This document shows positions 3,068-29,988 of a stretch of 64,000 bases of DNA, piece by piece. The translations under genes and the position numbers were made by a program. Origin of the DNA: an uncultured Candidatus Saccharibacteria bacterium (lineage in GTDB: Bacteria; Patescibacteriota; Minisyncoccia; Phycocordibacterales; JACOZG01); NCBI GenBank assembly GCA_965230925.1, contig OZ246403.1, positions 530,230-594,229 of the forward strand, read 5' to 3'. The notes beneath the pieces are model-generated. The model did not search any database and was not told where the DNA came from. It worked only from the letters and a program-made list of their open reading frames with translations. Every line of letters begins with the position of its first letter. Position 1 is the first letter of the stretch.

Positions 3068-3071
3068 TAAT

Positions 3072-4181: not shown

Positions 4182-4206
4182 ATTAAAAGTTAATTATAAT
4201 TAAAAT

Positions 4207-6216: not shown

Positions 6217-6261
6217 GCAGGGCGAGAAATCCGAAGCCCGAATATCGAAACTCGAAACAAT

Positions 6262-6630: not shown

Positions 6631-6703
6631 TGTTTATGATTTCCTTGTTTATAAATTTGAATTTGTTTCGGATTTCGAAATTCGAATTTCGTGCTTTTAA
6701 CTT

Positions 6704-7570: not shown

Positions 7571-7582
7571 TAAGGTAAAAAT

Positions 7583-9801: not shown

Positions 9802-9814
9802 AGTTATAAAAAGT

Positions 9815-10909
9815 ATGAAAAAATTAATCTGGATCGTCATTATCTTAATAATCCTTGGGGCGATTTGGTTTGTGGTTGGTAAACAAGAACCAGTGACTTC
9901 TGGTGAATCCATTAAGCTTGGTGTTATTGTCGGTACGAGTGGTCAATACGCTCCAGCCGGGGAGGCTTATGTCAAAGGTTTTAATTTGGCTTTAGAGCAA
10001 TGGAATAATTCTTCCCAAACACCTAAATTTGAAGCTGTTTTCGAAGATGATGGATTTGAAGCCGTAAAGGGATTATCGGCCTACAAAAAATTACGCGAGG
10101 CCAACAAAGTGAATGGATACGCTATTCTTTCTTCCTTCACTATTGATGCAGTCTACGATCTGGTTCATCAAGAGGATAAGCCAGTAGCGTTGGGATTTGA
10201 ACAAAGTCGGCCAGCTGAGGCCGATAATATTTTTCAAGTTTTGCCAGCAGCTAAACCGGTTCAGGCTGGCTTGGGACAGAAAATGAAAGAGTTGGGATAC
10301 CAGAAGCCGGCTGCCGCGGTGAGCAATAATACGCCCGTTTATCAAAATTTTTATGACGGCTTTAGAGAGGGTTACGGATCAGAAGTGCAGAAATTTGAAA
10401 TTGGGAGTGATGTTGGAGGGATTCGATCCCAGGCTTTGGCTTTGTTAGCCGCTCGGCCTGATGTTATCGCTTTCTTTATGGCACCCAAAGAGGGTGCTTT
10501 GTTGGTGAAAGAGATTCTAAAAATTACAACCTCGGAGAATCGACCTGATTTTGCTTTTGACCAAAGTGTGCAGTCGGGATCAACCGATTACCAATCTATC
10601 CTTGCCGGCGAACTCACAAAAATTGATGGTAGTCTCGTCTCTATGTCGAGGAATGATCTGAGCGAAATGTTCAAAAGTGCATTCAAAGAGAAATATAGTA
10701 TGGATGTACCATTTGGTGCTGATATGGGCTATAACTCCTTTACGCTTCTCGCGTCAACCTATGATTCTGACCCGAACATTTGGATTAATAATATGAAAAT
10801 GGCTCGTATCGCAGGCTCGGATGGTGAGATTTATTTTGATGAAAATGGTCTCAGAGTACCAAACATATTTTTTGGTACCATAAAGAACGGTCAGGTTCTT
10901 ACTCAGTAA
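9815..10909 (+). CDS. ABC transporter substrate-binding protein, LivJ/LivK family, paralog 6
   Basis: MKKLIWIVIILIILGAIWF anchor and IKLGVIVGTSGQYAPAGE motif. Confidence 0.8.
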   Translation: MKKLIWIVIILIILGAIWFVVGKQEPVTSGESIKLGVIVGTSGQYAPAGEAYVKGFNLALEQWNNSSQTPKFEAVFEDDGFEAVKGLSAYKKLREANKVNGYAILSSFTIDAVYDLVHQEDKPVALGFEQSRPAEADNIFQVLPAAKPVQAGLGQKMKELGYQKPAAAVSNNTPVYQNFYDGFREGYGSEVQKFEIGSDVGGIRSQALALLAARPDVIAFFMAPKEGALLVKEILKITTSENRPDFAFDQSVQSGSTDYQSILAGELTKIDGSLVSMSRNDLSEMFKSAFKEKYSMDVPFGADMGYNSFTLLASTYDSDPNIWINNMKMARIAGSDGEIYFDENGLRVPNIFFGTIKNGQVLTQ

Positions 10910-10912
10910 TTT

Positions 10913-11644
10913 ATGCCCACGCTGCAGACAAAAAATGTGGTGAAGCGTTTTGACGGGGTCCATGCGGTGGATCATCTTTCGGTTGAGTTCCGGCCCGGGG
11001 AAATTACGGGGATCATCGGTCCCAATGGCTCGGGCAAGTCGACTTTGATTAATACTCTCACTGGGATGATCCCGCTCGATGGCGGTGTAGTGAAAATTGC
11101 CGATACCGGGCTTGAACGGATTGAGGCCTTCGACGTTATTAATTACGGCATTACCCGCACCTTCCAAGACGTGCGACTCTTTGAGCAAATGCCGGTGCTC
11201 GACAATGTTCTGGTGGTGCTCACCGAGCGGCAGGTTTTTGCCTCGCTCTTCGAGCGTCATAGGGCTTTCCACCTCGAGCAGGCCGAGGCGGTGCTCACTC
11301 GTGTGGGTCTCTGGGGTAAGCGCCATGAACTGGCCGCCAATCTCTCCTACGGCCAGCGCAAGCTCCTCGAGATCGCCCGAGCGCTTGCGATGAAGGCCGA
11401 GATTTACTTTTTCGACGAGCCCTTTGCCGGTCTCTTCCCCGAGATGGTGAAGACGGTGGTGGTGGTGCTCCAGGAGTTGCGCGCGGCGGGGAAAGCGATT
11501 ATTCTCGTAGAGCACAATATGGACTTGATCCGCGAGCTTTCCGATCGGGTGATCGTGATGGATAGCGGTAAGCTCCTCGCCGAGGGTGAGCCAGAAGCGG
11601 TGCTGAAGCGGCCGGAAGTAATAGAGGCTTATTTAGGAGAATAA
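10913..11644 (+). CDS. livG: branched-chain amino acid ABC transporter ATP-binding protein (LivG-like)
   Basis: Walker A GPNGSGKST, ABC signature LSYGQRKLLEIARAL, Walker B IYFFDEP, H-loop VEHNM, and a C-terminal ...IEAYLGE. Confidence 0.85.
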   Translation: MPTLQTKNVVKRFDGVHAVDHLSVEFRPGEITGIIGPNGSGKSTLINTLTGMIPLDGGVVKIADTGLERIEAFDVINYGITRTFQDVRLFEQMPVLDNVLVVLTERQVFASLFERHRAFHLEQAEAVLTRVGLWGKRHELAANLSYGQRKLLEIARALAMKAEIYFFDEPFAGLFPEMVKTVVVVLQELRAAGKAIILVEHNMDLIRELSDRVIVMDSGKLLAEGEPEAVLKRPEVIEAYLGE

Positions 11645-11653
11645 TTTTTTAAT

Positions 11654-12739
11654 ATGAACAAAATCATTGGTTGGATTGTTGCGGTCATTCTGGTCGGTAT
11701 TATTGCCTGGACATTTGTTGGCAAAGATCAGCCGGCGGCAAACGGCTTTAATCTAGGACTAATTAGTATTTTGAGCGGGGATTATGCCGTGGTGGGAGAA
11801 AATATTCGCAATGGTGTGATTTTAGCTAGTGAAGAATACAATCAGGCTCATCCAGATGCCCAAATTAAACTTGTTACAGAAGACGATGGATTTAATGGTG
11901 GTAAGGGTTTGAGTGCCTATCGGAAAATGACCACGGTCGACAACATTGATGCGTTGATTAATGTTTCTACACCAACTATTGATGCAATTTACGAAGCGGT
12001 GACGGCGACGAAGTTACCGGTGATCCAGCTCGGTGAACAAGGCCGTGAGCCGAGTGATGATAATGTGATTGGTATCTTTCCGAGTAGTATTGCTTCGGAA
12101 TATGACTACGGTGTTTATCTGAGGAATAAAGGGATCACCCAGATGGACTTAGTGTATACCAATATCGATGCCATGGTTCGTTTCGTCGATAGCTTCAAGA
12201 AGGGTTTCCAAGGCCAAACGACTGATTTCATCATTCAAGCTGACGAGAAGGATCTTCGAACCCATGCTCTCAAGGTGGCCGTGGCTAATCCGTCTACCCT
12301 CGGCTTGTTCATTGTTCCTCAGCAAGGGGCGCAGTTTATGAAGGAATTTTTGAAGGTGAAGAAAACTGATCCACAGCTTTTCTTTGATGCCAATTTCCAA
12401 TCCGGCTTTTCTGATTATGAGCGGATTCTCGGTGATCTCACGGTCTTAGACGGAACCTTGGTTGGTACCGTAGATTCAACGGTTGCGGATTCATTTAAAG
12501 AGGCGTACAAAAAGCGCTTTAATTCTGATGCCGGATTTTTGGCCGATATGGGGTATGACGCCTTCAACCTTCTCGTTGCTACGCGCAATGCCGATCAGGT
12601 GGCGTGGCTCAATAATCTTAAGAAGGCTAATTATAGCGGAGTGAGCGGCAATATTCAGTTTGATCCAGCCGGCAATCGCCAACCAAAAACGAAAGTGATG
12701 GTGGTGAAAAATGGAGTGATTAGTGATCTAGAGCAATAA
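11654..12739 (+). CDS. ABC transporter substrate-binding protein, LivJ/LivK family, paralog 7 (MNK subgroup)
   Basis: MNKIIGWIVAVILVGIIAW anchor. The product has a PBP type-I fold, 361 aa. Confidence 0.8.
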   Translation: MNKIIGWIVAVILVGIIAWTFVGKDQPAANGFNLGLISILSGDYAVVGENIRNGVILASEEYNQAHPDAQIKLVTEDDGFNGGKGLSAYRKMTTVDNIDALINVSTPTIDAIYEAVTATKLPVIQLGEQGREPSDDNVIGIFPSSIASEYDYGVYLRNKGITQMDLVYTNIDAMVRFVDSFKKGFQGQTTDFIIQADEKDLRTHALKVAVANPSTLGLFIVPQQGAQFMKEFLKVKKTDPQLFFDANFQSGFSDYERILGDLTVLDGTLVGTVDSTVADSFKEAYKKRFNSDAGFLADMGYDAFNLLVATRNADQVAWLNNLKKANYSGVSGNIQFDPAGNRQPKTKVMVVKNGVISDLEQ

Positions 12740-12745
12740 ATTAAT

Positions 12746-13756
12746 ATGAACAAAGTCATCAAGATTATTATCGCCATTATTGTTCTCGGATTCTTGGTCT
12801 GGGCCGTGGGAACAAAGTCGGAGCCAAATGAGCCCGGAGAAAACACCCCGATCAAGATTGGTGTTATCGCACCGCTGACTGGTCCGGTGGCGGATTATGG
12901 TGAAGAGGTGCGCAAGGGCGTAATGGCTGGCGCTCCGGCGAGTGGTGTGGAATTTGTGTTTGAAGATGATAAGTGTGATCCGAAAGAGGCGGTCTCAGCC
13001 TTTAAGAAGCTCGCTGAGTTCGATAAGATGCAGTTCATCATTGGTCCGGCTTGTGGCTCGTCGCAAGAGGCGATTGTGCCCTTGCTCGCCGGGAAGGAAA
13101 TAATGACGGTGGTGCCAGCTGCGGCCTCTTCAGCTCTCTATGCGCAAAGTGGCAATAACTTTTTCAACATCCAGTACTCGCTCCAAGATGAATCCAAGTT
13201 CGTGGCCGAGAAAATGACCGCGCTCGGTTATACCAAGGTGGCGCTCGTGAGTTACGCCAATGCTTTCTCCAAGGCCCATGCCGACAGTTTCCGCGAGCAC
13301 TTCGCTGGCACTATTGCCATTGATTCCGTGATCACTGACGAGAACACCAATCTCGCCACCGAGGTGACCAAGATTAAAGCGGCGCGAGTAGACGCGATTT
13401 ACTCACCCGACATTTCTTTTTTCTTCGCGAGTGGTCTCGCTAAACTCCGTGAGCAAGGAGTGATTGCGCCTGTCTTTTCTACCTATGTAGTGGAGTTGCC
13501 GGCTGTGCGCGAGGTGGTGGCCGATGTAATGTATTCTTACCCCGCCGAGATTGCCGATACCGAAGCAGCGGTTTTTGGTCTCTCCAAGCGCGCGGCGGAA
13601 TTACTTTCTCAAACGGTGCTTGAATGCGAGGGTGCTTACCAATGCGTGCACGACAAACTCACCTCCTCTGGCCCCTTCGACCAAAACGGCATCTACCGCC
13701 GCAGCATGCTTCTGAAGCAAATTAAGAACAGTGTGCCGACCGTTATTAATAGTTAA
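12746..13756 (+). CDS. ABC transporter substrate-binding protein, LivJ/LivK family, paralog 8
   Basis: MNKVIKIIIAIIVLGFLVW anchor and IKIGVIAPLTGPVADYGE motif. Shorter at 336 aa. Confidence 0.75.
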   Translation: MNKVIKIIIAIIVLGFLVWAVGTKSEPNEPGENTPIKIGVIAPLTGPVADYGEEVRKGVMAGAPASGVEFVFEDDKCDPKEAVSAFKKLAEFDKMQFIIGPACGSSQEAIVPLLAGKEIMTVVPAAASSALYAQSGNNFFNIQYSLQDESKFVAEKMTALGYTKVALVSYANAFSKAHADSFREHFAGTIAIDSVITDENTNLATEVTKIKAARVDAIYSPDISFFFASGLAKLREQGVIAPVFSTYVVELPAVREVVADVMYSYPAEIADTEAAVFGLSKRAAELLSQTVLECEGAYQCVHDKLTSSGPFDQNGIYRRSMLLKQIKNSVPTVINS

Positions 13757-13765
13757 CGTATTATC

Positions 13766-14824
13766 ATGAACAAAACAATTGGCATCGTTGTCGCCATCAT
13801 CATTATTTTACTTATCGTCTGGGGAGTGAAGTCGAATCAACCCGCAGCACCCGGAGAAAATACGCCAATCAAAATTGGTGCCGTTTTACCTCTCACTGGC
13901 GGTGCGGCGGCTCTGGGTGAGCCAATGAAAAACGGAATGGAATTAGCGCTCAAAGATAAAAGTAATATCATTGTTCAGTATGAAGACAGTAAGGGGATAC
14001 CTGCTGAGGGTGCTTCGGCCTATCATCGTCTCATTGCTGGTGGAGTGAATGCTGTGGTGTCGGCTTATAGCAACGTGAGTGTGCCGCTTACGAAGATTGC
14101 CGAACAAAATAAAGTTCCGCTTCTGATGTCGCTCGTGGCTGCTGACAATGTCACCAATGAATATTCTTATCGTTACTATGCCACGGCGCAAAGTTATGTC
14201 GCCCCGGCCTTCACTGATCCTGCTTCGCCACTCAAGGATGTGACAGATATCGCCGTGATTTATCGTAATGATGAATATGGTAACTCAGTCAAAGCGCGGA
14301 TCACCGAGATGGCAGCGCAACATAATAAAAAGATTCTTATTGCTGAGCCTTATCAGACCAACGAAACTGATTTCTCTACCCATCTCACCAAGATTAAAGC
14401 AGCGAAGCCACAAGCGCTTCTCTTTGTTGATGGAACTCCAGCAGAAGGGGTGGCGATTCTAAAGAAAATTGATGAGTTAAAGCTAAATCTCTTGGTGATG
14501 GAAACGTCGGCAATCTTCTCTGATCCGGCCGTGCAGAAGCAGGCTCCGTTGATGACTTTTTACACCGCAGCTTTCCGCTTCTCACTTCCCGAAGACAACA
14601 CTGAATTTAAAAAGTTATATATGGACACGTATGGCACTTCACCCAACTTCGGTGCGGCTTTTGGCTACGATATTGGGACATGGCTTGCCGATTGCGTTGG
14701 TCAGGGTTCTGATGTTCAGCAATGTTTGTCGCAAACAAACTCCGTCAACGGCTTAACGGGTGAAATTACCAATATCACTAATCACGAAATTAATCCGCCC
14801 ATGTTCTTGGTGAAAGTGAACTAG
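13766..14824 (+). CDS. ABC transporter substrate-binding protein, LivJ/LivK family, paralog 9
   Basis: MNKTIGIVVAIIIILLIVW anchor and IKIGAVLPLTGGAAALGE motif. Confidence 0.8.
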   Translation: MNKTIGIVVAIIIILLIVWGVKSNQPAAPGENTPIKIGAVLPLTGGAAALGEPMKNGMELALKDKSNIIVQYEDSKGIPAEGASAYHRLIAGGVNAVVSAYSNVSVPLTKIAEQNKVPLLMSLVAADNVTNEYSYRYYATAQSYVAPAFTDPASPLKDVTDIAVIYRNDEYGNSVKARITEMAAQHNKKILIAEPYQTNETDFSTHLTKIKAAKPQALLFVDGTPAEGVAILKKIDELKLNLLVMETSAIFSDPAVQKQAPLMTFYTAAFRFSLPEDNTEFKKLYMDTYGTSPNFGAAFGYDIGTWLADCVGQGSDVQQCLSQTNSVNGLTGEITNITNHEINPPMFLVKVN

Positions 14825-14843
14825 ATTGTGGTAGAGTAGAAGG

Positions 14844-15941
14844 ATGAACAAAACCGTCGGTTGGATTATCGCGATAATTGTTATTGTTGGCGCTTTCTGG
14901 TGGCTCAACCGAGGCCCGATTTCCGGGCCTTCAACGGATGGTCCAATCAAGATTGGCGCCCCGCTGATTTTATCAGGAGATTTTGCCAAGTATGGTGAAC
15001 GAGCCAGACGATCGATTGATTTGGCGGTAGAGAAATTTAACCAAGAACATCCGGAGATTAATGTGCAAGTGGTGTATGAAGATACTCATGCGGATCCCAA
15101 GCAGGCAGTTTCGGCCTATCGAAAATTAGTTGATCTCGATAGGGTTCAAGCTATTGTTGGTCCCTTGTTGCAAGTAGAAATGGCGGCGCTTTTGCCCCAG
15201 ATTCAGCAGGATAATATTCCCGTGTTTAGTATGGCGCCCGTCACCCGTGACTTGCGTGCTGACACTTCGAATCCTTTGGTGATCTGGCCTGACCCCACGC
15301 TGGAGGCGGGGCAAATTGCTGAATACGTTTTTAACCAAGGAGTGAAGACCGTCGCAATTCTTGGTACGCAAGATAGTTGGGAGAATGAAGTTTCTGGAGC
15401 TTTTGCGAGTAAATTTACCGCGCCCGGTGGTACTGTGACCGCCCAAGAAATTGTTTTACCCACTGCAAGTGATGTGCGTTTGGCGGTAACTAAGGTTGTT
15501 GGGACGAAGCCAGAAGCCGTTTTTCTCGGCACGTATTACAAGTTTTTCCCTTTCATTAAATCTTTAAACGAACAGGGTTACAAAGGCAAACTGTATAGTA
15601 TCGAGATTGATACCTATCTCGCTGAAGAAGCGGGGGCGCTCGCGAACGGTTTGCGTTTTATTTCTCCAGACTTTTATACTCCAGGTTTTACCGCCGAATA
15701 TCAAAATCGGTATAGCGAAGTGCCAAGTTTACCCGCTGGCCAATCCCACGACGCCGCTCAAATTCTGTTGTCGCTTATTGCTGAAGGAAAAACAGGGGAC
15801 GATCTCATAGATGCTATGGGAGCCTTGAAAGAATTTAACGGTGTGTCTGGTAAAATTATTTTCACTGATGATCACCGCGCCACCTTCCCGCTTTCAATTT
15901 TTGAGCTCCAAGATGGCCAGATTAAAAAATTAGAAAATTAA
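14844..15941 (+). CDS. ABC transporter substrate-binding protein, LivJ/LivK family, paralog 10
   Basis: MNKTVGWIIAIIVIVGAFWW anchor and IKIGAPLILSGDFAKYGE motif. Confidence 0.8.
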   Translation: MNKTVGWIIAIIVIVGAFWWLNRGPISGPSTDGPIKIGAPLILSGDFAKYGERARRSIDLAVEKFNQEHPEINVQVVYEDTHADPKQAVSAYRKLVDLDRVQAIVGPLLQVEMAALLPQIQQDNIPVFSMAPVTRDLRADTSNPLVIWPDPTLEAGQIAEYVFNQGVKTVAILGTQDSWENEVSGAFASKFTAPGGTVTAQEIVLPTASDVRLAVTKVVGTKPEAVFLGTYYKFFPFIKSLNEQGYKGKLYSIEIDTYLAEEAGALANGLRFISPDFYTPGFTAEYQNRYSEVPSLPAGQSHDAAQILLSLIAEGKTGDDLIDAMGALKEFNGVSGKIIFTDDHRATFPLSIFELQDGQIKKLEN

Positions 15942-16669: not shown

Positions 16670-16676
16670 GTTTTTG

Positions 16677-16748
16677 TGCGCGCTCTTGGATTCGAACCAA
16701 GGACCGGTCGTGTATAAGACGACTGCTCTACCGCTGAGCTAAGCGCGC
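16677..16748 (-). tRNA. tRNA with anticodon UAU (putative tRNA-Ile reading AUA)
   Basis: The rc folds as a cloverleaf: GCGCGCT-TA-GCTC-AGCGGTA-GAGC-A-GTCGT-CTTATAC-ACGAC-CGGTC-CTTGG-TTCGAAT-CCAAG-AGCGCGC-A. All four stems are Watson-Crick. Anticodon loop CUUAUAC gives UAU. No encoded CCA. Confidence 0.7.
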
Positions 16749-16860
16749 AAGGGGGGTTGTCCACACCCGTAGAAATATAGCAGAATTTATGCTAATCTAA
16801 TACTTGCCAAAGGGAAGTGGTTTTTATGGCTAACTTTGGCCTTAATATTAGCTTAAATTC

Positions 16861-17664
16861 ATGAATAAATATTTTATTAGTGGCGCATTAGCGCTCACGT
16901 TAGTGTTGACCCCCGCGTTTGGCATCGCAGCTAAAGTTCACGCTGCGCAGACAGAGAAAAACAGTCGACCAAGTTTATGGTCAAGAATTTTGTCGCGGTT
17001 TAATGATCGACCGGCGCCAAAGGTGGTGAAGCCAATCGAGCCTGTAATTGTTCCGCCAGAGACGGTTCTTCCTATTCCCGAGCCGCAAGTTAATGTTCTC
17101 GCCATGGTTTCTAGTAACCCTCCTTCTGGAGCGGTAATTTCTGGTCAGCCCTGGAGCACAGATGGCGCTCTTTATGGTGGTTCTAAGATTCAAATTATTG
17201 AGGTAACGATGTCGAATACGGCGACCGCGATGGTGGCAGAGGACTTCGAAGTTACTTCACCTAACCCAGACACGCCGAGGGTGGTGAGCTTGATGCCAAG
17301 CGAGAAGAACAATACCGTAAAATTGGTGCTCCAATACCCACTTCCTCTTGGTGTTTGGACCACGATTACTCACAAGGCTAGCGGCAGTAAGATTGTGCTT
17401 GGGCGCTTGCCTGGCGATGTTAATCAAGACGGTGCTTTTACCCCCCACGATATCTTGAAGATGGTAGATTATCAGAACGGTGTGGCAGATTTGCCTCTCT
17501 ATGCCGTTGACATGGATAATAGTGAGGCCTTTACTCCTGCTGACTTCTTGCGGCTCATTGATTTAATCAATGGTGCTGACAAGCTTGATCCGGTGGGAGA
17601 AGCCCGATGGTTTGGCCGCTCACTTGGTCCGAACCCACTTACGAGCCAGCCAACAGCGAACTAA
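16861..17664 (+). CDS. secreted protein with C-terminal conserved module plus type-I dockerin-like repeats
   Basis: Signal peptide MNKYFISGALALTLVLTPAFGIAAKVHA. C-terminal GDVNQDGAFTPHDILKMVDY...DMDNSEAFTPADFLRLIDLINGAD resembles the dockerin double Ca-binding repeat. Confidence 0.6.
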   Translation: MNKYFISGALALTLVLTPAFGIAAKVHAAQTEKNSRPSLWSRILSRFNDRPAPKVVKPIEPVIVPPETVLPIPEPQVNVLAMVSSNPPSGAVISGQPWSTDGALYGGSKIQIIEVTMSNTATAMVAEDFEVTSPNPDTPRVVSLMPSEKNNTVKLVLQYPLPLGVWTTITHKASGSKIVLGRLPGDVNQDGAFTPHDILKMVDYQNGVADLPLYAVDMDNSEAFTPADFLRLIDLINGADKLDPVGEARWFGRSLGPNPLTSQPTAN

Positions 17665-17687
17665 TAAATTTATCCACTTTCCCAAAA

Positions 17688-17715
17688 AGACCTCTCAACG
17701 GAGAGGTCTTTTTGT
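17688..17715 (+). terminator. rho-independent terminator (agacctctc-aacg-gagaggtct + T-run)
   Basis: Perfect 9-bp stem, 4-nt loop, followed by ttttt. Confidence 0.6.
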
Positions 17716-17732
17716 GTTATGATGTCGAGCGT

Positions 17733-19646
17733 ATGAAAAAATTTACCCTTTTATCTTTATTTTTAGCCTTAATTTTTATTAGTCCAATTGCGGCCCGAGC
17801 TCAAGATACGAGCAAGCTTGATTACTCTAGCCTGCTTAAAATCTTGGAACAGCTTCGAAGTCAGAAGGCTGTTCCTTCCGTGACCGTTACGCCGGTTGAC
17901 GGTGTTTTTAAACCCGTTGATGTGCCTGTCGCCTTCAAGATTGGTGAGAGTGGCCCTGAGGTGAGAGCGATCCAAGAAAAACTTCGTGCCTCCGGCGACT
18001 TCACTTATCCAGAAATTACTGGTTATTACGGCAAAGTCACCGATGATGCGGTGAAGAAGTATGAGGCGCGAACCAAAGAGAAAATTCTTAAGCCGCAACC
18101 AATTGCAAGACCGTTCCCAATGTGGCCAGTTTCTGGAGCGGGTCTCGGTAATTTCTCGGTGAAGGAAATAAACGCCGCGATTGCTGAAGCTTATAGTGGA
18201 AATGATAAAACCGGAGTTTGGAAGGAAATTCCTGGTAGTAAAGAGTACAGCCAATTTCAGTCCGGCCCAATTAATTGCAATGGCGCCAATACTTGCATTG
18301 ATGGTCTTTACAACTTTGCCCAGATTTCTCGGGTGGCAGTAAATTCTTCTGGTAATGTGGCGGTGGTGGCGGTAAATACTGGATATGTGTATCCGGAGGG
18401 GCAACTTATTAAGAAGGGAGATACTCAGGTGCCAGCAGTTTTTCCTACTTTCGCTTATGGTGGACCTCGTCCGACGCTGTACCCAATAGAAAAGAAGGTT
18501 GATGGTCGCGTGGTACTCGGTATGCCGTATCGATTGTATGAATATCCTACCGAGACGGAGTTTTCTCGCTCCAATGTTAGCGACCTCAACTTCAAAGGGG
18601 AAAACCTTTTGTTTGTTCTGGTAACAGGGCAGAAGAATTATCATGACACTCGTGGTTTGGTAGACGCGAGTGACACCTATCCCTTCACGGTTCAGCTCGA
18701 TCGCGCTACCGATATGTATCAATTGGTGCCTGGTCAGAAAACAGAATACCCAACACCAATAACAAGTGGTATCCAAGTGATCTCACCCAATGGTGGCGAG
18801 GGGCTTGCCTTGGGAACAACTTATCGAGTGGCTTGGAATACAAAATATAATTTTCCCGCAGACATTTTCCTTGTTGACCAAACGGCTCTTGCGCCAATTC
18901 AAATTGGTGATGAATACACTGGTTATTTTGACTGGGTAGTTGGAAAAAGAAACAGAAATTCTGATCGAGAAATAAAGCCAGGAAGTTATTTTATTAAAGT
19001 TTGTGTATTAGCTGATCCTTCAGACGAGAAAAGCGTAGTTTGTGACCAAAGTGATTCTTACTTCAAAATTTATTCTGACACTCAGACAGGTGAACCAAAG
19101 CCCGGGGTTTTTGGAATCATGAGCAGTGTCCCGAGTTCGGGCGCGGTTGATGCGCGGATGCCATCGAATCCTGATGGTTCAACGGTCAGTGGTTGGCAAA
19201 CATTTGAATTGATCTTCAATGAAGGCAATGCGGCGAAGATGAGATCACTTAAGCCGAGCGACTTTCTGGTGAAAAACACCGGCGCCGGGTCGCTTAAAGT
19301 CTCTTCTGTTGAAGTGCTTGGTGAGAACAATATCCGGGTAAAGCTAGATAAACCAATTCCGGTTGGTCAGTGGACGCTCATTGTTCATGAAGATTCTGGT
19401 ACCTACGCCAATTTTGGCTTCTTGCCGGCCGACAGTAATGGCGACGGTGTAGTTAATTCCACTGACCTTTTGCTTCTCATTGATGTAAACAATCAGGCCA
19501 AGAAAGCGGAAGTGTGGCAGGTAGATATTGATCGCAGTGGGGTGGTAAATATTCTCGATCAACTAATGTGGATTAACCTGATCAATGGTGCCGACGCCTT
19601 CGACATTTGGCTCAATAAATCATTGCCGCCACTTTACGGAAACTAA
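17733..19646 (+). CDS. secreted surface protein: PG_binding_1-like domain + Kre9/KNH-like Ig-like domain + conserved module + type-I dockerin-like repeats
   Basis: Start taken at MKKFTLLSLFLALIFISPIAARA; the upstream part of the 17607 ORF overlaps the previous gene. FKIGESGPEVRAIQEKLRASGDFTYPEITGYYG resembles the peptidoglycan-binding motif. ISPNGGE...W matches the Ig-like motif. C-terminal DSNGDGVVNSTDLLLLID and DIDRSGVVNILDQLMWINLINGADA form the dockerin pair. Confidence 0.65.
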   Translation: MKKFTLLSLFLALIFISPIAARAQDTSKLDYSSLLKILEQLRSQKAVPSVTVTPVDGVFKPVDVPVAFKIGESGPEVRAIQEKLRASGDFTYPEITGYYGKVTDDAVKKYEARTKEKILKPQPIARPFPMWPVSGAGLGNFSVKEINAAIAEAYSGNDKTGVWKEIPGSKEYSQFQSGPINCNGANTCIDGLYNFAQISRVAVNSSGNVAVVAVNTGYVYPEGQLIKKGDTQVPAVFPTFAYGGPRPTLYPIEKKVDGRVVLGMPYRLYEYPTETEFSRSNVSDLNFKGENLLFVLVTGQKNYHDTRGLVDASDTYPFTVQLDRATDMYQLVPGQKTEYPTPITSGIQVISPNGGEGLALGTTYRVAWNTKYNFPADIFLVDQTALAPIQIGDEYTGYFDWVVGKRNRNSDREIKPGSYFIKVCVLADPSDEKSVVCDQSDSYFKIYSDTQTGEPKPGVFGIMSSVPSSGAVDARMPSNPDGSTVSGWQTFELIFNEGNAAKMRSLKPSDFLVKNTGAGSLKVSSVEVLGENNIRVKLDKPIPVGQWTLIVHEDSGTYANFGFLPADSNGDGVVNSTDLLLLIDVNNQAKKAEVWQVDIDRSGVVNILDQLMWINLINGADAFDIWLNKSLPPLYGN

Positions 19647-19649
19647 ACT

Positions 19650-20171
19650 TTGAATGTGAGTGTAAGAGAACATGATGCTCTACGTCACCAGCTTTTAGAA
19701 GCTCATGACGCCTGGTCGAAAGCGATTTTTCGCCATCTTTCCTTCCGAGTAAGAGATCGTGAGCGGGTTCTTGAGCTGACGCAAGAGGTCTTTCTTCGTG
19801 CTTGGCAAATGCTCTCTCGAGGAGAAAAGGTGGAGAATATGCGAGCCCTTCTCTATCGTATTGCCCGCAATCTGACCATTGATGAGTACCGCAAGCCGAA
19901 GACGGAATCGCTTGATGCCCTAACTGAAGCGACTGATTTTGAGCCGGTAGATCCGCGGGAGGAAAACTTGGTTGATCAGCTTGATGGGGCGCGGATGCGC
20001 GAACTGGTGCTCAAGCTTGAACCGCTTTACCGGGAGCCTTTGGTCTATCGTTATATTGATGATCTGGCGGTGAAGGAGATCGCGAGTCTCCTCGGAGAGA
20101 CAGAAAACGTGATCTCTGTTCGGCTTCATCGCGGTTTAGCCAAGCTCCGCGAGCTTATTTTAAAATCATGA
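19650..20171 (+). CDS. ECF (sigma-70 family group 4) RNA polymerase sigma factor
   Basis: Region 2 (LTQEVFLRAWQ..., RNLTIDEYRK) and a region 4 HTH (LVYRYIDDLAVKEIASLLGETENVISVRLHRGLAKLRE). 173 aa. TTG/GTG start 4 nt after the previous stop. Confidence 0.8.
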   Translation: MNVSVREHDALRHQLLEAHDAWSKAIFRHLSFRVRDRERVLELTQEVFLRAWQMLSRGEKVENMRALLYRIARNLTIDEYRKPKTESLDALTEATDFEPVDPREENLVDQLDGARMRELVLKLEPLYREPLVYRYIDDLAVKEIASLLGETENVISVRLHRGLAKLRELILKS

Positions 20172-20240
20172 ATCCCGTTACAAATTCAGCCAACCTAACT
20201 ATGAGTAAGATTATTAAGTGTGTTAAATTTGTAACGGGAT
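20172..20240 (+). promoter_or_regulatory. perfect 15-bp inverted repeat (atcccgttacaaatt / aatttgtaacgggat) spanning sigma stop to anti-sigma start
   Basis: Arms at 20172-20186 and 20226-20240 with a 39-nt loop. The right arm contains the ATG (20239) of the downstream gene. Seen directly in sequence. Confidence 0.4.
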
Positions 20241-20718
20241 GAATCACTTAGAACGCGCCCTGGGGCGAGCAAAAAACGAAATGAATTTGACCGAGGCCGA
20301 GGAGGCGAGTCTTAAGCAGGCTTTGGAGTGGAAAATGGGTGAGGAGAAACTGGTAAGAATCCCCGAAGACTATCGTCATCATGCTTGGTGGCGGGGTTTA
20401 GCCCTAGTTTTGCCACTCATTGTCATTTTTATCGCGGCGCGTCAAGTAACGGCACCAAGGCCGGACGTGTTGCCGCAAGTGTCGGATAGTGCTACCGAAA
20501 TGGTTGTACCCATGACGGTTCCCGTTGCTCCAGTTGCACCTCCTCCGGCACCGGTAATGCTGAAGCGAATGCCGGTGGTGGAACCGCCGGTGGCGCCAGT
20601 AGAGCCTCAGTTTCCTACGATGACGCCGTCAGCGGGTGGACTGATGTCTGTTCCAGAAGATGAGACAGAGTTGCTACGAGCCACCACGTCCACAAGTACG
20701 ATTGAGATTGAAGAATAA
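20239..20718 (+). CDS. putative anti-sigma factor / membrane-anchored regulator (single TM, Pro/Val-rich extracytoplasmic tail)
   Basis: Immediately downstream of the ECF sigma. One TM helix (WWRGLALVLPLIVIFIAA) and a low-complexity PVAPVAPPPAPV tail. No recognisable zinc-finger anti-sigma N-domain, so assignment is by context only. Confidence 0.4.
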   Translation: MNHLERALGRAKNEMNLTEAEEASLKQALEWKMGEEKLVRIPEDYRHHAWWRGLALVLPLIVIFIAARQVTAPRPDVLPQVSDSATEMVVPMTVPVAPVAPPPAPVMLKRMPVVEPPVAPVEPQFPTMTPSAGGLMSVPEDETELLRATTSTSTIEIEE

Positions 20719-20728
20719 TAAATTTATA

Positions 20729-23059
20729 ATGAATAATATGAAAAAAATAAACATCCTCTTGCTTGGTCTTGCTTTGGTGGGGGGCTTGGTAATGCCCACC
20801 ACGACGCGAGCCCAAATTACTAGTCCTTGGGAAGAAACGGCTTATTTGCCGCCGTGGTCTCCTGTTCAAACCGAAGTGCGGTTTAAGATTGGTGAGAGTG
20901 GTCCCGAGGTGCGAGCGATCCAAGAGAAGCTTCGTGCTTCTGGCGATTTTACCTATCCTGAAATCACTGGCTATTACGGTCAACTGACTGATGCCGCGGT
21001 GAAGAAGTATGAATTGAGAACTGGGCAGAAAATTATTAAACCAATGCCGAGACCGCTTCCAATGCCACCAGTTAGCAGTGATGATATCACGGTGCTTTCA
21101 CCAAATGGCGGGGAAAAATTAAATATAGGAGACAAGTTTAATATTAGTTGGTCAATTAAAGATGGTAAGATAGATTTTCCGTCGATAAGTATTCATTTGC
21201 GAGAGCACCTTACCTGTACACCAGAAAACCATCCCAACGACCCATTCTTTTGCTCTTTGTGGGATCCCGCCCCACCGAAGTCCTATGCAGTAATAGTTGG
21301 TGCTCCTAATTCGCTAAAGAACGGTGGAAGCTATGCTTGGTTAGTTGGTAGAGCGCAAAGAATTGATGACGATATTGTTTCTTACTTAAACATCCCTTCT
21401 GGAAAATATTTCCTAGAAATATGTTATTCGCAGATAATTCCAATTGCTGGAGGATTAACAAACAACACTTCCCGAGCTCAGGTTTGTGATAAGAGTGATT
21501 CCTATTTCACTATTTCTTCTAACGACATCATTCCTTATCCTCGACCATTCGGCAATCAACCACCGGTAATTCACGGTGTCTCTGGTCCGACGGTGTTACG
21601 AGTGGGCGAGGCGGGTGAGTGGTCAGTGAAGGCGAGTGATCCAGAGAACGGTAGCTTGAAGTATGCTATTGATTGGGGTGATCGAAGGGCTTCAGCTGGT
21701 GCGGAGGGCTTGCCTTCAGTGTTTGGTCTTACGTTTGATACGACTCAGAAAAGCACCTTTACTCACAGCTATGGTTCCGCCGGTACTTATACGATTACTT
21801 TTGCGGTAAGTGACGATTGGGGTAATAGCGCCAAGTCCAGCATGACGGTGCGAGTAGGTAATAGTGTTGTTGGTAATAATAAAGTCCAAGTAATTTCACC
21901 TAACGGTGGTGAATCGTTGCTTGCTTACTCCAACGCCACTATTACTTGGCAGTCTCCTAGTGCTAAGGTTGATTTATATTTGCAGCCAGATTGGTCTTGT
22001 CCTGCTGGTTATGCTTGTCCGGCCGTAATGCCACAGCCTTACCTTCTCGATAAGAATATTTCTGGAAATGTGTATTACTGGATTGTGGCGACTGATGTAA
22101 ACAATAAAAGAATTCCGAGCGGAAGTTATAAAATAGAAATTTGTCCGGCTGGGTCTGACTCGGGTTGTGATTCTAGTGACAATTCTTTCAGAATTTATTC
22201 TAATAGCAACTTGCCGGCAGAGGCTGAAGGTGAGCTGAGTGTGGACGTTGTAACTTCAAAGAGCGAGAAAACTCTTACCAGTGCGCGACTCTCGGTGCAC
22301 ACAAGTAGCGGGCGCTTTGTGGCCACGGGCAATACAAGCGATGGCCCGGAAATCTTTAGCGACTTAGCTTATGGTTCTTATGTGGTCTACGCTCAGGCCT
22401 CTGGTTATGCGCCAGCGAGAAAGGCTTTCACCCTCTCGGCCAAAAAGCCTTCAGCCACGGTGGTGATTAAACTTAAGACGGCGAAAACGGTAGATATGCC
22501 CAAGGTGGTAACTTCAGGTATTGTCTCGAGTAATCCGCCAAATGGTGCTATCGATGCGCGGATGCCCTCGAATGTGAACGGCTCCGGCTTCTGGCAAGGT
22601 TGGAATCAATTTGTACTTAAAATTGCTGGAGTAAATACGGCCAGCCTCACTCCAACTGACTTTGCCATGAAGACAACCGGCGGAGTGTCGACGAAGATCA
22701 ATGACGTTTCTGTTGCAACCGGCGATTCAACTCTTGGTGTGATTCTTACTACCCAGTATGGCGTGCCAATTCCGGAAGGCGAGCGGACGGTTATCAGACA
22801 TGAGGCGAGTGGTACTGAGATTTGTCTCGGGTATCTCCCCGGCGACGTGGACGGTAGCGCCAAGGTGGACGGTGCCGACTTGCTTGCCCTCATTGATGCG
22901 ATCAACGGCGTGAAGACCTTGCCAGATTATTCTACCGATCTCAACCGCGACGGTGTGACGAACAATGAAGATCAGCTTACTTGGATTGATCTCACTAACG
23001 GCGCCGACGCCTACAGCGCTTGGTTTGGCGAGACCTTGCCCAAGTGTCCGAAGATCTAA
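20729..23059 (+). CDS. large secreted surface protein: PG_binding_1-like + Kre9/KNH Ig-like x2 + PKD-like + conserved module + type-I dockerin-like repeats
   Basis: Start taken at MNNMKKINILLLGLALVGG. The FKIGESGPEVRAIQEKLRASGDFTYPEITGYYG stretch is identical to the 17733 protein. A PKD-like domain is present (YAIDWGD...GTYTITFAVSDDWGN). C-terminal GDVDGSAKVDGADLLALIDAINGV...DLNRDGVTNNEDQLTWIDLTNGADA forms the dockerin pair. Confidence 0.65.
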   Translation: MNNMKKINILLLGLALVGGLVMPTTTRAQITSPWEETAYLPPWSPVQTEVRFKIGESGPEVRAIQEKLRASGDFTYPEITGYYGQLTDAAVKKYELRTGQKIIKPMPRPLPMPPVSSDDITVLSPNGGEKLNIGDKFNISWSIKDGKIDFPSISIHLREHLTCTPENHPNDPFFCSLWDPAPPKSYAVIVGAPNSLKNGGSYAWLVGRAQRIDDDIVSYLNIPSGKYFLEICYSQIIPIAGGLTNNTSRAQVCDKSDSYFTISSNDIIPYPRPFGNQPPVIHGVSGPTVLRVGEAGEWSVKASDPENGSLKYAIDWGDRRASAGAEGLPSVFGLTFDTTQKSTFTHSYGSAGTYTITFAVSDDWGNSAKSSMTVRVGNSVVGNNKVQVISPNGGESLLAYSNATITWQSPSAKVDLYLQPDWSCPAGYACPAVMPQPYLLDKNISGNVYYWIVATDVNNKRIPSGSYKIEICPAGSDSGCDSSDNSFRIYSNSNLPAEAEGELSVDVVTSKSEKTLTSARLSVHTSSGRFVATGNTSDGPEIFSDLAYGSYVVYAQASGYAPARKAFTLSAKKPSATVVIKLKTAKTVDMPKVVTSGIVSSNPPNGAIDARMPSNVNGSGFWQGWNQFVLKIAGVNTASLTPTDFAMKTTGGVSTKINDVSVATGDSTLGVILTTQYGVPIPEGERTVIRHEASGTEICLGYLPGDVDGSAKVDGADLLALIDAINGVKTLPDYSTDLNRDGVTNNEDQLTWIDLTNGADAYSAWFGETLPKCPKI

Positions 23060-23159: not shown

Positions 23160-24329
23160 GTGAATTTTAAATTAGACGAAGGAAAATTATTCACTCTCTT
23201 ACTTGTAATTATTATTCTTTCCGGCCTCTCTTTGTTTTTTCAGGTTGTTAATTTACAAATACAAGGTTCTAATTCACCGGCCTTAGTTAAAAACGGTTCT
23301 CAATTTGAGGTGCAAGAGAGGCCGTCATTTGAACCGTCTTTACCAGCCCGTCAGAGATATGTGATTACTGACGTGGGTTCCCTCACGGAACCGAGTTTTG
23401 TTGAGTCGGTTTCCGTTAACTCTTCTGGTTGGGTGGTGGGTAACGCTAATGGTGGTGATGGGTACCCTAGACCAATTTTGTCTCGTGATGGTCACATTCA
23501 AGCTTTGGGTTTTCCTTCACCAGGCATTTTGCGTGGTTGGGCTCGGGATATAAACGATGGTGGGTCAGCGGTGGGTAGTGTGGAAGACGGTGTTATCGAG
23601 AAGCCTGTTTGGTGGAACAGCAGTTTCTTGCCGCAAATGTTACCTACGGGTACAGCCGCTCGTGGGCAAGCAGATGGGATTAATAATTTGGGTGAGATTG
23701 TGGGCAATATTGTCCAGATTGGACCAAAGGCGGTTAAGTGGAGCGGTGGCCAGATGACTCTTTTGGAAAGTTTGGGTGGTAGTAAATCTTATGCCCATGA
23801 CATAAATGACGGCGGAAAAATTGTTGGATCCTCAACCCTGACAAACAATGAAACATACTTTTTTGCTTGCCTTTGGGATAAGGGGCAAGTTGTGGAGCTC
23901 GGTGCCTTACCCGATGGTCTGGGAAGTTCTGCAGAGGCTATAAATGAGAACGGTGAAGCCGTTGGTTTTTCCTTTACCCCGCACCACAATTTTCCTGGTG
24001 GTGGGCAGGTGAAGAGGGCTGTTGCTTGGCGTGATGGGGAGATTGTTGATTTGGGTAGCTTGCCTGGAAATGTAGATTTTTCCTACGCTCTTGGGATTAA
24101 TGACCGTGGTTGGATTGTGGGTTCTAGCGGCGGCGGTTTTGGTCAAGAGTCAGTGGCAACATTGTGGCGCGACGGTGTAATTATTGATTTGAACACTTAC
24201 TTACCAGAAAATTCTGGTTGGTATCTGCTTGAGGCGCATGACATTAATGAGAGAGGTGAAATTACCGGCATTGGTTACTTAGAAGGCTTTAGTAATCAAA
24301 GTCGGGGGTTTGTTATGAAGCCGGTATAG
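23160..24329 (+). CDS. membrane-anchored extracellular HAF-family repeat protein
   Basis: N-terminal TM anchor. It carries at least six repeats of the DIN(D/N)xG.IVG type (DINDGGSAVGS, INNLGEIVGN, DINDGGKIVGS, INENGEAVGF, INDRGWIVGS, DINERGEITG), matching the HAF extracellular repeat. Confidence 0.55.
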   Translation: MNFKLDEGKLFTLLLVIIILSGLSLFFQVVNLQIQGSNSPALVKNGSQFEVQERPSFEPSLPARQRYVITDVGSLTEPSFVESVSVNSSGWVVGNANGGDGYPRPILSRDGHIQALGFPSPGILRGWARDINDGGSAVGSVEDGVIEKPVWWNSSFLPQMLPTGTAARGQADGINNLGEIVGNIVQIGPKAVKWSGGQMTLLESLGGSKSYAHDINDGGKIVGSSTLTNNETYFFACLWDKGQVVELGALPDGLGSSAEAINENGEAVGFSFTPHHNFPGGGQVKRAVAWRDGEIVDLGSLPGNVDFSYALGINDRGWIVGSSGGGFGQESVATLWRDGVIIDLNTYLPENSGWYLLEAHDINERGEITGIGYLEGFSNQSRGFVMKPV

Positions 24330-26467: not shown

Positions 26468-27472
26468 ATGAACTTTTGGCTTTTAATTTTGAGTCTTTTT
26501 GCGACGCCGAGCGCGGGTGTGGCGCTCAATTGGCAAACTGTTTCGACCCCGAGTCCTTGGACGGCGCGGGATGCTCAGGAGGTTTTTATTTGGGATGATC
26601 GTCTTTGGCTCACAGGTGGTCTTACTGGTGTTTGGGACAAGGCGCACAACCAGGTGAATTATTGGGACATGCCGCACTGGAATGATTTGTGGTCGAGTAA
26701 GGATGGCGAGATGTGGCAACGCGAGGCTGAACATCTTTCTTTCCCGCCCCGGCGATCACTTTCTGTTGTTTCGTTCAAAGACAAGCTTTGGATGCTCGGT
26801 GGTTGGAGTTCGCTCGATGGTTACAAGAGCGATGTTTGGACTTCGACAAATGGAAAAGACTGGCAGTGGCTTGTTTCTGCGGCACCGTGGAAGGCTCGTG
26901 AAGGGCAAACGCTGACGGTTTTTAATAATGAATTATGGTTACTTGGTGGAGTAAATTTTGATACCCGAGAAGTTTTTCATGACATTTGGTCGAGCGTTGA
27001 TGGCTTCACTTGGCAGTGGCGCGGGCAAGCTCCATGGTCTGGGCGTTATGATCATGCGGTTGAGGTTTTTGATAATCGTCTCTGGCTCACTGGTGGTTTG
27101 GATACGAGCGGCGAAGGTAAGAGCGATACTTGGGCTTCGGTTGATGGTCTAAGCTGGACGCTTGTTGACGCCAATGCTCTCTGGGGTAAACGGCATGGTC
27201 ATGAATTACTAGCGATCAAAGATCGCCTATGGCTTGTGAGTGGCTGGAACACCACCGCCGATCATGGGAGCGCGGAGGTTTGGTTGTCTAAAGACGGAGT
27301 GTTTTGGGAGAAAACGGCTGACACGCCAAAGTGGCTTGGTCGAGAAGATCATGCGATCATATTTTTCCGCGACAAACTCTGGCTCATGGGCGGCATGGCC
27401 GACGGCTTTGTTTGGCGTAATGATATTTGGTCAACCGCCGTGCCAGAGATCGAAATTGAGACTAACCCTTAA
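26468..27472 (+). CDS. secreted Kelch-repeat beta-propeller protein
   Basis: Signal peptide MNFWLLILSLFATPSAGVA. Six repeats carry the W...(D/N)xLWLxGG signature (DDRLWLTGG, DKLWMLGGW, NELWLLGGV, DNRLWLTGGL, KDRLWLVSGW, RDKLWLMGGM). The start codon is 6 nt from the divergent recG start. Confidence 0.55.
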   Translation: MNFWLLILSLFATPSAGVALNWQTVSTPSPWTARDAQEVFIWDDRLWLTGGLTGVWDKAHNQVNYWDMPHWNDLWSSKDGEMWQREAEHLSFPPRRSLSVVSFKDKLWMLGGWSSLDGYKSDVWTSTNGKDWQWLVSAAPWKAREGQTLTVFNNELWLLGGVNFDTREVFHDIWSSVDGFTWQWRGQAPWSGRYDHAVEVFDNRLWLTGGLDTSGEGKSDTWASVDGLSWTLVDANALWGKRHGHELLAIKDRLWLVSGWNTTADHGSAEVWLSKDGVFWEKTADTPKWLGREDHAIIFFRDKLWLMGGMADGFVWRNDIWSTAVPEIEIETNP

Positions 27473-27950
27473 TTTCAGGTAAGCTCTGAGTGGAGAGAAA
27501 ACGGATGGCAATTTCTCGGCCCGAGTTATCGCGTAGCGCTACGTCTACGGCAGGATCAAAGACCTTGTCACCGTTGTCGCTTAAGAGGAGAGCGTAATAA
27601 TATTTTCCTTCTTCGGTGAGTTCGAGTAAGTTTACTACGCCGGTGGTATCGGTGCCGGCGCTAAAGTATTGCGTGCCAATTGTTTTGCCGGGTGTTGCCC
27701 CTTCTTCGTCCGTAATAATTACCCAACCGCCAGCTGACGTGGTGACGGAAGAGACATACACAATCGCGCCGGGGAATTGATCGTTTACCATGAGGCTATT
27801 ATTGCGATTGGCTTGATTTGTCGGAATGCCGCCGACAGCCGCGGTATTACCATTGTTTTCTGGCGCACCTTTAAAGACCCAGAAGGAAATACCAAGGGCG
27901 ATAACCACTAATACAACAACAGTAACAACGAAATTTTTTGAGTTTTCCAT
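27462..27950 (-). CDS. hypothetical membrane-anchored protein (N-terminal TM, beta-rich ectodomain)
   Basis: 162-aa ORF with a VVTVVVLVVIALGISFWVF anchor. No recognisable family. Confidence 0.4.
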   Translation of the reverse strand: MENSKNFVVTVVVLVVIALGISFWVFKGAPENNGNTAAVGGIPTNQANRNNSLMVNDQFPGAIVYVSSVTTSAGGWVIITDEEGATPGKTIGTQYFSAGTDTTGVVNLLELTEEGKYYYALLLSDNGDKVFDPAVDVALRDNSGREIAIRFLSTQSLPEIKG

Positions 27951-29969: not shown

Positions 29970-29988
29970 GGCGGTTTATACTATCGGC

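Follow-up and report, generated by a model that had tools for sequence, protein, structure and literature searches.

A conserved gene cluster for predicted Ig-dockerin surface proteins with an embedded ECF sigma factor in a Parcubacteria-side bacterium

The 64-kb stretch of contig OZ246403.1 analyzed in this study (hereafter the window) contains a cluster of five genes that code for three secreted proteins (P1, P2, and P3), a sigma factor of the extracytoplasmic function (ECF) type, and a candidate anti-sigma factor. All five genes lie on the plus strand at the positions given in a preliminary description of this DNA. The C-termini of P1, P2, and P3 have a unit of ~180 amino acids (aa) in common, which consists of an immunoglobulin (Ig)-like beta-sandwich of ~105 aa and a dockerin of ~70 aa. 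With a probability of about 0.5, we regard these genes as a conserved envelope-protein gene cluster that represents a surface-docking or attachment kit made from already known parts; such a docking or attachment role is plausible but unproven. On the evidence of its sequence, the organism branches deeply on the Parcubacteria side of the Patescibacteria (candidate phyla radiation, CPR) and has a small genome. This placement is based on LepA encoded in the window, which shares no more than 68% identity with anything else, and whose best named relatives (63–67%) are Candidatus Vogelbacteria, Parcubacteria, Paceibacterota, and Minisyncoccia.

The shared Ig-dockerin unit and the proteins that carry it

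Pairwise BLASTP comparisons aligned P1 with P2 (33% identity over 186 aa, E 8e-26), P1 with P3 (33% over 208 aa, E 1e-28), and P2 with P3 (45% over 184 aa, E 4e-38). The shared C-terminal region reported in the preliminary description is thus real, but its length is ~180 rather than 110 aa. A profile of the unit found exactly three copies in the window. Each of the three proteins contains two 12-residue calcium loops of the pattern D-x-[DN]-x-[DSN]-x6-[DE], spaced 31 residues apart. The Dockerin_1 model (PF00404, cut-off 22.9 bits) was passed by P2 (27.7 bits) and P3 (23.4 bits), whereas P1 fell 0.9 bit short (22.0 bits). These data agree with the type I dockerin-like repeats described earlier. 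The Ig half of P1, P2, and P3 matched no Pfam or NCBIfam model.

The AlphaFold2 (AF2) model of the P3 unit, computed from a 39-sequence alignment, reached a mean predicted local distance difference test score (pLDDT) of 89.5 and a predicted template modeling score (pTM) of 0.85. In this model, seven strands (residues 13–118) are followed, with no linker, by a three-helix dockerin with a helix after each calcium loop. The junction G-x-L-P-x-D, where the last Ig strand enters the first calcium loop, is invariant or nearly so. The dockerin half of the model superposed on solved dockerins at 1.7–2.2 Å with 22–30% sequence identity, and the best structural relatives of the sandwich domain were CopC and S-layer Ig domains, including those of the S-layer proteins SbsC, Sap, and EA1. 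Foldseek searches of the PDB with the unit matched SbsC and dockerins. Likewise, a profile search of PDB sequences retrieved dockerins (E ~5e-4) and the Sap Ig domain (E 0.009), and its alignments to the X-module-dockerin chains 2b59_B, 3kcp_A, and 5g5d_B reached back into the end of the X-module. According to the model, the sandwich half is an Ig-like domain of the CopC/S-layer-Ig-like kind within a fixed Ig-dockerin unit. This unit is predicted to be rigid, with the Ig-like sandwich passing straight into the dockerin and with intact calcium loops.

When 1.84 billion cluster representatives (clusters at 50% identity) were searched exhaustively with a profile, the unit proved to belong to a large family, with 4,912 representatives at E ≤ 1e-3, 2,310 at E ≤ 1e-10, and 1,185 at E ≤ 1e-30. 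Each of the strongest matches spans the Ig-like as well as the dockerin half. The unit ends no more than 15 residues from the C-terminus in 140 of the 150 best matches, and the proteins range from 180 to 2,857 aa. A Pfam scan of 60 family members found reprolysin/M12B, trypsin-like, and S8 peptidases, right-handed beta-helices, and LDL-B, SGL, and FG-GAP propellers; Dockerin_1 was reached at E ≤ 1e-5 in 12 of these 60 relatives. All family members with an organism label were assigned to metagenome-assembled genomes (MAGs) of Planctomycetota or Phycisphaerae, with the sole exception of the nearest relative of P1, which was labeled Patescibacteria. Because of its near-constant C-terminal position on varied secreted cargo, the unit appears to behave like a C-terminal docking tag. 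Judged by these matches, it is a real and unannotated but widespread module that is not unique to this genome. Hence, the preliminary description of the module as novel does not hold: a large family exists, although no Pfam or NCBIfam model covers its Ig half. The unit occurs in more than 1,000 clusters at 50% identity. Defining this half would improve the annotation of many secreted proteases and adhesin-like proteins of Planctomycetota, and the defined Ig-dockerin family would offer a handle for finding the matching receptor.

All three proteins begin with a hydrophobic Sec-type signal sequence. They are thus very likely exported by means of cleavable Sec-type signal peptides, in line with the preliminary description of three secreted proteins. 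P1 has neither an anchor domain nor a cargo domain. The N-termini of P2 and P3 are also related to each other (54% identity), and BLASTP detected internal Ig-like repeats in addition. In both proteins, PG_binding_1 (PF01471, cut-off 23 bits) was recognized at model positions 1–40 of 57, with 28.4 bits for P2 and 29.2 bits for P3. The identical peptidoglycan-binding stretch noted earlier was recovered here as 33 aa, FKIGESGPEVRAIQEKLRASGDFTYPEITGYYG. The two genes differ in this stretch at 15 of 99 nt, all of them synonymous, which indicates purifying selection on the peptide and rules out recent gene conversion as the cause of the identity.

Between anchor and tip, P2 and P3 contain Ig-like domains with an SPNGGE motif that had been assigned to the Kre9/KNH family in the preliminary description. 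This assignment was only partly supported: P3 scored 16.3 bits with Kre9_KNH (PF10342), which is below the cut-off of 24.6, and P2 had no match in the Pfam scan. However, a homologous SPNGGE domain in a 484-aa protein from another CPR genome (locus L004, see below) reached 38.2 bits. The domains of P2 and P3 are therefore probably distant members of Kre9_KNH. A PKD domain, anticipated in the preliminary description, was found in P3 with the Pfam model PKD_4 (32.4 bits); a match of the CPR pilus protein PamR within the same region (NCBIfam, E 0.012) was treated as noise. While every domain of P3 is accounted for, P2 contains the sole unassigned region of the operon proteins (Table 1). For the middle of P2 (aa 110–356) there was no Pfam match, and a homology search, which was lossy and also missed P2 and P3 themselves, returned no homologues. 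The single-sequence AF2 model of this part is uninformative (pLDDT 37), and any likeness to a cohesin is not readable from it.

PKD domains are also a feature of two very large secreted proteins of 1,088 and 1,449 aa encoded elsewhere in the window (29923–33189 and 33292–37641, plus strand), which contain many PKD or K319L-like PKD domains; the 1,088-aa protein has LVIVD repeats as well. No dockerin or Ig-dockerin unit was found in either protein when the unit profile was run over the window.

Regulator genes, transcription signals, and genomic setting

The gene that follows P2 codes for an ECF-type sigma factor with regions 2 and 4 only (Sigma70_r2, 38.5 bits; Sigma70_r4_2, 44.6 bits; TIGR02937, 67.5 bits at a cut-off of 42.9). 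In the Pfam and NCBIfam scan, none of the sigma subfamily models scored above its own cut-off. Its downstream neighbor encodes a 159-aa protein that we infer to be an anti-sigma factor from its position, its single transmembrane (TM) helix, and the conserved synteny. Of the sigma/anti-sigma pair that had been described between P2 and P3, the ECF sigma factor was thereby confirmed, whereas the anti-sigma factor is a putative one. P2 and the sigma gene are 3–9 nt apart, the sigma gene and the gene of the anti-sigma candidate 67 nt, and the latter and P3 10 nt. The sigma gene is embedded in the group of surface-protein genes and is predicted to be co-transcribed with them. ECF operons are usually autoregulated, and control of P1, P2, and P3 by the sigma factor is therefore plausible. 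A PrsW-family intramembrane metalloprotease is encoded 28 kb from the cluster (48488–49237, minus strand). In Bacillus subtilis, PrsW acts as the site-1 protease that cleaves the anti-sigma factor RsiW. By analogy, the PrsW-family protein could act on the single-pass anti-sigma candidate.

The gene order Ig-dockerin protein, peptidoglycan-binding protein, sigma factor, anti-sigma candidate, and P3-like protein is kept in three further loci: L003, a MAG contig; L008, which represents essentially the same organism (identical lengths of the open reading frames (ORFs) and near-identical scores); and the more divergent L009. This suggests conservation of the cluster in at least three lineages. Across the related loci, identity amounts to 66% for the sigma factors and to 55–60% for the anti-sigma candidates, whose TM segment is identical. 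An NCBI assembly, on a contig of 715,934 bp, and several Logan assemblies contain proteins with the same sequences as P1, P3, and the putative anti-sigma factor. According to the sample names, the loci related to the cluster originate from the 0.1-µm fraction of Hainich samples, which we take to be groundwater. A search with the P1 alignment over a collection of species-representative genomes, which did not include the source genome, led to one locus. In L004 (10001–14428; GCA_964648765.1, a 553-kb contig of another CPR genome), a P1-like Ig-dockerin gene and two genes for proteins with peptidoglycan-binding, PKD, and SPNGGE domains are located between fusA and tuf in the str/S10 ribosomal region.

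Upstream of P1, block TTTGGCCTTAATATT and an inverted repeat (GCCAAA-N23-26-TTTGGC) were found that are also present in the orthologous locus L003. The repeat is located at ~16806–16840 in the window and at ~9941–9978 in L003, and overlaps block TTTGGCYTTAWTAYT, which matches the window 6 times (1.1 expected), once at ~45 nt upstream of ftsZ. These elements could be a candidate promoter or operator; their conservation comprises two independent sequences and is weak evidence. The adjoining gene is a tRNA-Ile with the anticodon UAU (16676–16748, minus strand), which occupies the same place in L003 (9847–9918, minus strand). In most bacteria, AUA is read by a lysidine-modified tRNA with the anticodon CAU, and a tRNA-Ile with UAU is unusual.

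Three predicted RNA hairpins structure the cluster (Table 1). The one downstream of P1 is likely an intrinsic terminator or attenuator between P1 and P2. Because P1 is followed by this stem and a U-tract, it may be expressed above the rest of the cluster. The hairpin is absent from L003, where the gap between P1 and P2 is 4 nt. The second hairpin begins immediately behind the stop codon of the sigma gene. With its 3′ arm it covers the ribosome-binding region of the anti-sigma candidate and the first two letters (AU) of its AUG start codon. Translation of the anti-sigma candidate may be coupled to that of the sigma factor in this way; in L003, the two genes overlap instead of being spaced by a hairpin. 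The third one, behind P3, is an intrinsic terminator that appears to mark the end of the transcription unit. A scan for sigma-70 promoters gave 10 matches versus 8.9 expected, which is chance level, and the best match was dismissed as it overlaps the P3 start codon.

Table 1 Features of the gene cluster, with positions in the window. PG_binding_1, PKD, and the other domains are given by their nucleotide (nt) positions.
Feature	Position	Strand	Description
Upstream region of P1	16749–16860	+	Bounded by tRNA-Ile(UAU) on the minus strand; -10-like TAATAT (16844–16849) in block TTTGGCCTTAATATT
P1	16861–17664	+	267 aa; Sec signal peptide, Pro/Val-rich linker, Ig-like domain (nt 17092–17394), dockerin (nt 17398–17631)
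P1 downstream hairpin	17683–17713	+	14-bp stem into U-tract; -20.4 kcal/mol, z -3.7, 0 of 200 shuffles as stable
P2	17733–19646	+	637 aa if counted from 17733, where the signal peptide begins (the start set by gene callers, 17607, overlaps P1); signal peptide, PG_binding_1 (nt 17949–18068), orphan region
P2 orphan region	~18120–18737	+	~200 aa, unassigned
P2 C-terminal part	~18738–19631	+	SPNGGE/Kre9_KNH-like Ig (~nt 18738–19103), Ig-like (nt 19107–19409), dockerin (nt 19413–19631)
ECF-type sigma factor	19650–20171	+	173 aa from TTG start (171 aa from GTG at 19656); starts 3–9 nt past the P2 stop
Sigma/anti-sigma hairpin	20172–20240	+	15-bp stem; -23.3 kcal/mol, z -4.3
Putative anti-sigma factor	20239–20718	+	159 aa; cytoplasmic N-terminus of ~50 aa, one TM helix (residues ~51–72), Pro/Val-rich outer part of ~90 aa
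P3	20729–23059	+	776 aa; signal peptide, PG_binding_1 (nt 20897–21019), SPNGGE Ig (~nt 21074–21526), PKD (nt 21554–21853)
P3 C-terminal part	~21884–23047	+	Second SPNGGE Ig (~nt 21884–22207), CarboxypepD_reg-like, below cut-off (nt 22250–22474), Ig-like (nt 22511–22825), dockerin (nt 22826–23047)
Intrinsic terminator after P3	23081–23106	+	11-bp stem with 7 G-C pairs, then T-run; -19.2 kcal/mol, z -4.3

Just past the cluster terminator, the window encodes a HAF-repeat/DUF3466 protein (23160–24329, plus strand); a second protein of this type is located at 58091–59182 (minus strand), and an orthologue adjoins the cluster in L003 (18471–19619) on the other side of recG. Both genomes also encode a membrane-anchored DUF7282 protein near the cluster (window 27462–27950 and L003 20094–20561, both minus strand). 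The window also contains housekeeping genes, among them those for FtsH, FtsZ/FtsA, LepA, MurJ, and several aminoacyl-tRNA synthetases, along with the RNase P RNA and seven tRNAs. The class A RNase P RNA (40113–40469, plus strand) scored 105.1 bits against a gathering score of 100 and is thus a divergent copy. On the left side of the window, ~14 kb (1943–15941, plus strand) are occupied by ten paralogous Peripla_BP_6 (Liv-type) solute-binding genes, two BPD_transp_2 permease genes, and two ABC ATPase genes. An eleventh Peripla_BP_6 copy is located just left of the window (L011, 13387–14493), which is a striking expansion for a genome of ~0.7 Mb. About 5–7 kb right of the window (L010, 15200–17182), four consecutive small genes with T4SS_pilin/TrbC matches were found beside an SBP_bac_1 gene.

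Possible roles of the cluster

If the cluster is a docking or attachment kit, P2 and P3 would be held on the cell's own peptidoglycan via their N-terminal PG_binding_1 domains, and their stalks of Ig-like, PKD, and prealbumin-like domains would project a calcium-loaded Ig-dockerin tip outward. This tip would dock to a protein partner, for instance a divergent cohesin or a different beta-sandwich, that is carried by the same cell or by a host cell. P1, which lacks both an anchor and a cargo domain and has a likely terminator behind its gene, could be a free version of the tip, probably present in larger amounts, and could cap this partner, compete for it, or bridge it. The membrane protein would hold the sigma factor until an envelope or contact signal causes its removal, for which the PrsW-type protease is a candidate, and release of the sigma factor would raise transcription of the cluster. 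A role of these proteins in host interaction, as proposed in the preliminary description, is likewise something we infer.

Several observations weigh against a docking kit under sigma factor control. The Pfam model Cohesin (PF00963) had no match in the ORFs of at least 150 aa of the window or in the existing annotation of the 10 kb that flank it to the left and right, together ~84 kb of a contig that is 716 kb or longer; for the window, this corresponds to the preliminary description, which had seen no cohesin-like partner there. A cohesin-like fold was not found among the operon domains either, excepting the middle of P2, whose model is unusable. Structure searches, including Foldseek against the PDB, gave no match of the whole two-domain unit to a solved X-module-dockerin structure. 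On the regulatory side, the anti-sigma assignment rests on position and topology, and the 159-aa protein matched no family in Pfam or NCBIfam, including the anti-sigma families. The promoter motif GAAC-N14-18-CGT is absent upstream of P1, P2, the sigma gene, and P3 (25 matches across the window versus 38 expected; the scan covered this common ECF promoter type). The preliminary description had placed the three genes under ECF control and had named a GGAAC-N16-CGTC-type motif, which is lacking upstream of all three; such control is plausible at most. Moreover, no sigma factor is encoded near the P1-like gene of L004, and for this reason the link to the regulator appears to be specific to one lineage and not general.

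Many non-cellulosomal dockerins reportedly lack an identified cohesin. The lack of a cohesin in the ~84 kb would also fit a genome that encodes none at all. As a terminal module stabilized by calcium, the unit would then bind a ligand other than a protein (for example, a glycan of the wall or of a host) or simply stabilize the protein. We consider this possible but doubtful. The sandwich indeed resembles CopC and S-layer Ig domains more than cellulosomal X-modules, glycan targeting was suggested by the authors of a Saccharibacteria study for their dockerin protein (PMC10633639), and parts of the literature cited by PMC10066038 and PMC6461901 (Peer et al. 2009) treat non-cellulosomal dockerins as common. 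However, the dockerin fold and its loops are canonical and superpose closely on cohesin-binding dockerins, and the strict C-terminal position on diverse cargo better fits a protein-docking tag. In addition, Planctomycetes with dockerin-bearing M12B peptidases, which are one cargo type of the unit, were reported to encode cohesins (PMC6461901).

The S-layer proteins SbsC, Sap, and EA1 among the best structural relatives of the sandwich lend some support to a coat that assembles itself. In such a coat the tips would bind Ig-like domains of the paralogues (the SPNGGE/Kre9-like domains or the sandwich), and anchored P2 and P3 together with free P1 would form a wall lattice or S-layer-like layer, not an attachment device. 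P1 consists of a tip only and is followed by a terminator, as expected of an abundant subunit; the position of the L004 genes between fusA and tuf is a highly expressed neighborhood, and the large proteins of the cluster are all built from the same domain kit. Nevertheless, we regard a coat as unlikely. A cellulosome-type complex for polysaccharide degradation is suggested by the Dockerin_1 modules and by nothing else. No carbohydrate-active enzyme (CAZyme), glycoside hydrolase, carbohydrate esterase, carbohydrate-binding module, or cohesin domain was detected in P1–P3 or elsewhere in the window, consistent with the preliminary description, which had seen no cellulosome enzymes, and the genome of this CPR bacterium is small. 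As neither CAZymes nor cohesins are in view, we reject this explanation as extremely improbable.

Docking or attachment thus remains the role to which we give preference. A more far-reaching form of it, which we consider quite unlikely, would make the unit the docking half of an undescribed surface-display system of Planctomycetota and groundwater Parcubacteria. The receptor would be something other than a classical cohesin, proteins with PG_binding_1 and a terminal Ig-dockerin unit would bridge the symbiont wall to a host receptor, and the sigma pair would sense contact. Attachment and envelope building are largely unknown in CPR/Patescibacteria, of which very few have been cultured. The cluster offers concrete and conserved candidates for these functions, namely stalk proteins with a predicted wall anchor and docking tip, a free form of this tip, and a dedicated regulator pair. 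If the tip has no partner, the encoded proteins would be ordinary modular surface proteins.

Comparison with known systems

The dockerin half resembles the type I dockerins of cellulosomes (Clostridium thermocellum Xyn10B, PDB 2CCL/1OHZ; PF00404) in its duplicated F-hand with two 12-residue calcium loops that are each followed by a helix, its length of ~65–70 aa, and its C-terminal position on secreted proteins. In contrast to these dockerins, which are attached by a flexible linker, it is fused without a linker to an Ig-like domain. Its cargo is also non-enzymatic, consisting of a peptidoglycan-binding domain and an Ig stalk, with no CAZymes in view. In overall architecture, the unit equals, as far as the model goes, the X-module-dockerin (XDoc) dyad, in which a seven-stranded X-module of 98 residues is followed by a 66-residue dockerin (PMC5141474). 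Like the XDoc dyads of scaffoldins (ScaA/CipA, 2B59; CipB, 5K39; PMC5141474), it has a seven-stranded Ig-like domain of ~100 aa directly before a dockerin of ~66 aa and forms a single C-terminal unit of ~165–180 aa, which in scaffoldins attaches a larger structure to the cell surface. Unlike in XDoc dyads, the best structural matches of the sandwich are CopC and S-layer Ig domains and not X-modules, the dockerin scores as type I, and neither a type II cohesin nor an anchoring scaffoldin was seen in the ~84 kb. Shared ancestry of the sandwich and the X-modules is not established.

For the regulator genes, the closest parallel may be the SigI/RsgI sigma/anti-sigma pairs that regulate cellulosome genes in C. 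thermocellum (PMC6582324, PMC10328401, PMC4711584). Both systems combine an alternative sigma factor with a single-pass membrane anti-sigma factor, which is putative here, and are tied to genes of dockerin surface proteins. However, the sigma factor of the cluster is of the ECF type (regions 2 and 4 only) and not SigI, the outer part of the anti-sigma candidate is a Pro/Val-rich stretch of ~90 aa with no recognizable sensor module, and regulation of the cluster by this pair is putative.

Dockerins outside cellulosomes are already known from Planctomycetes, Omnitrophota, and Saccharibacteria, and a non-cellulosomal cohesin-dockerin system, which the preliminary description had put forward, had been proposed before for Planctomycetes (PMC6461901) and Omnitrophota (PMC10066038). 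We did not find the Ig-dockerin unit described in the literature as one conserved family of ~180 aa, nor its combination with an N-terminal PG_binding_1 anchor in Parcubacteria, nor the conserved embedding of an ECF sigma/anti-sigma pair among such genes. According to the “planctosome” hypothesis, Nemodlikiaceae (Planctomycetes) possess non-cellulosomal cohesin and dockerin proteins with M12B and M14 peptidases (PMC6461901). The Ig-dockerin family shares with this system the non-cellulolytic context, the occurrence on reprolysin/M12B, S8, and trypsin-like peptidases, and members from Planctomycetota/Phycisphaerae MAGs; this likeness is drawn from the published description of the planctosome proteins. 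In contrast to the planctosome, P1–P3 contain no peptidase, P2 and P3 are predicted to be anchored to peptidoglycan, the bacterium is probably single-membraned, and no cohesin adaptor was found in the ~84 kb.

Other ultra-small host-dependent bacteria also have dockerins on envelope proteins, for which adhesion has been proposed. In Omnitrophota, dockerin repeats of giant proteins are putative adhesins (PMC10066038; bioRxiv 10.1101/2023.11.21.568195), and the dockerin-domain envelope protein SEML1_0315 is essential in the cultured epibiotic Saccharibacterium Southlakia epibionticum (PMC10633639). The proteins of the cluster are likened to these by description and not by sequence. They differ from them in belonging to a Parcubacteria-side organism, and the layout from an N-terminal PG_binding_1 domain to a terminal Ig-dockerin unit, together with the embedded sigma/anti-sigma pair, is specific to the cluster described here.

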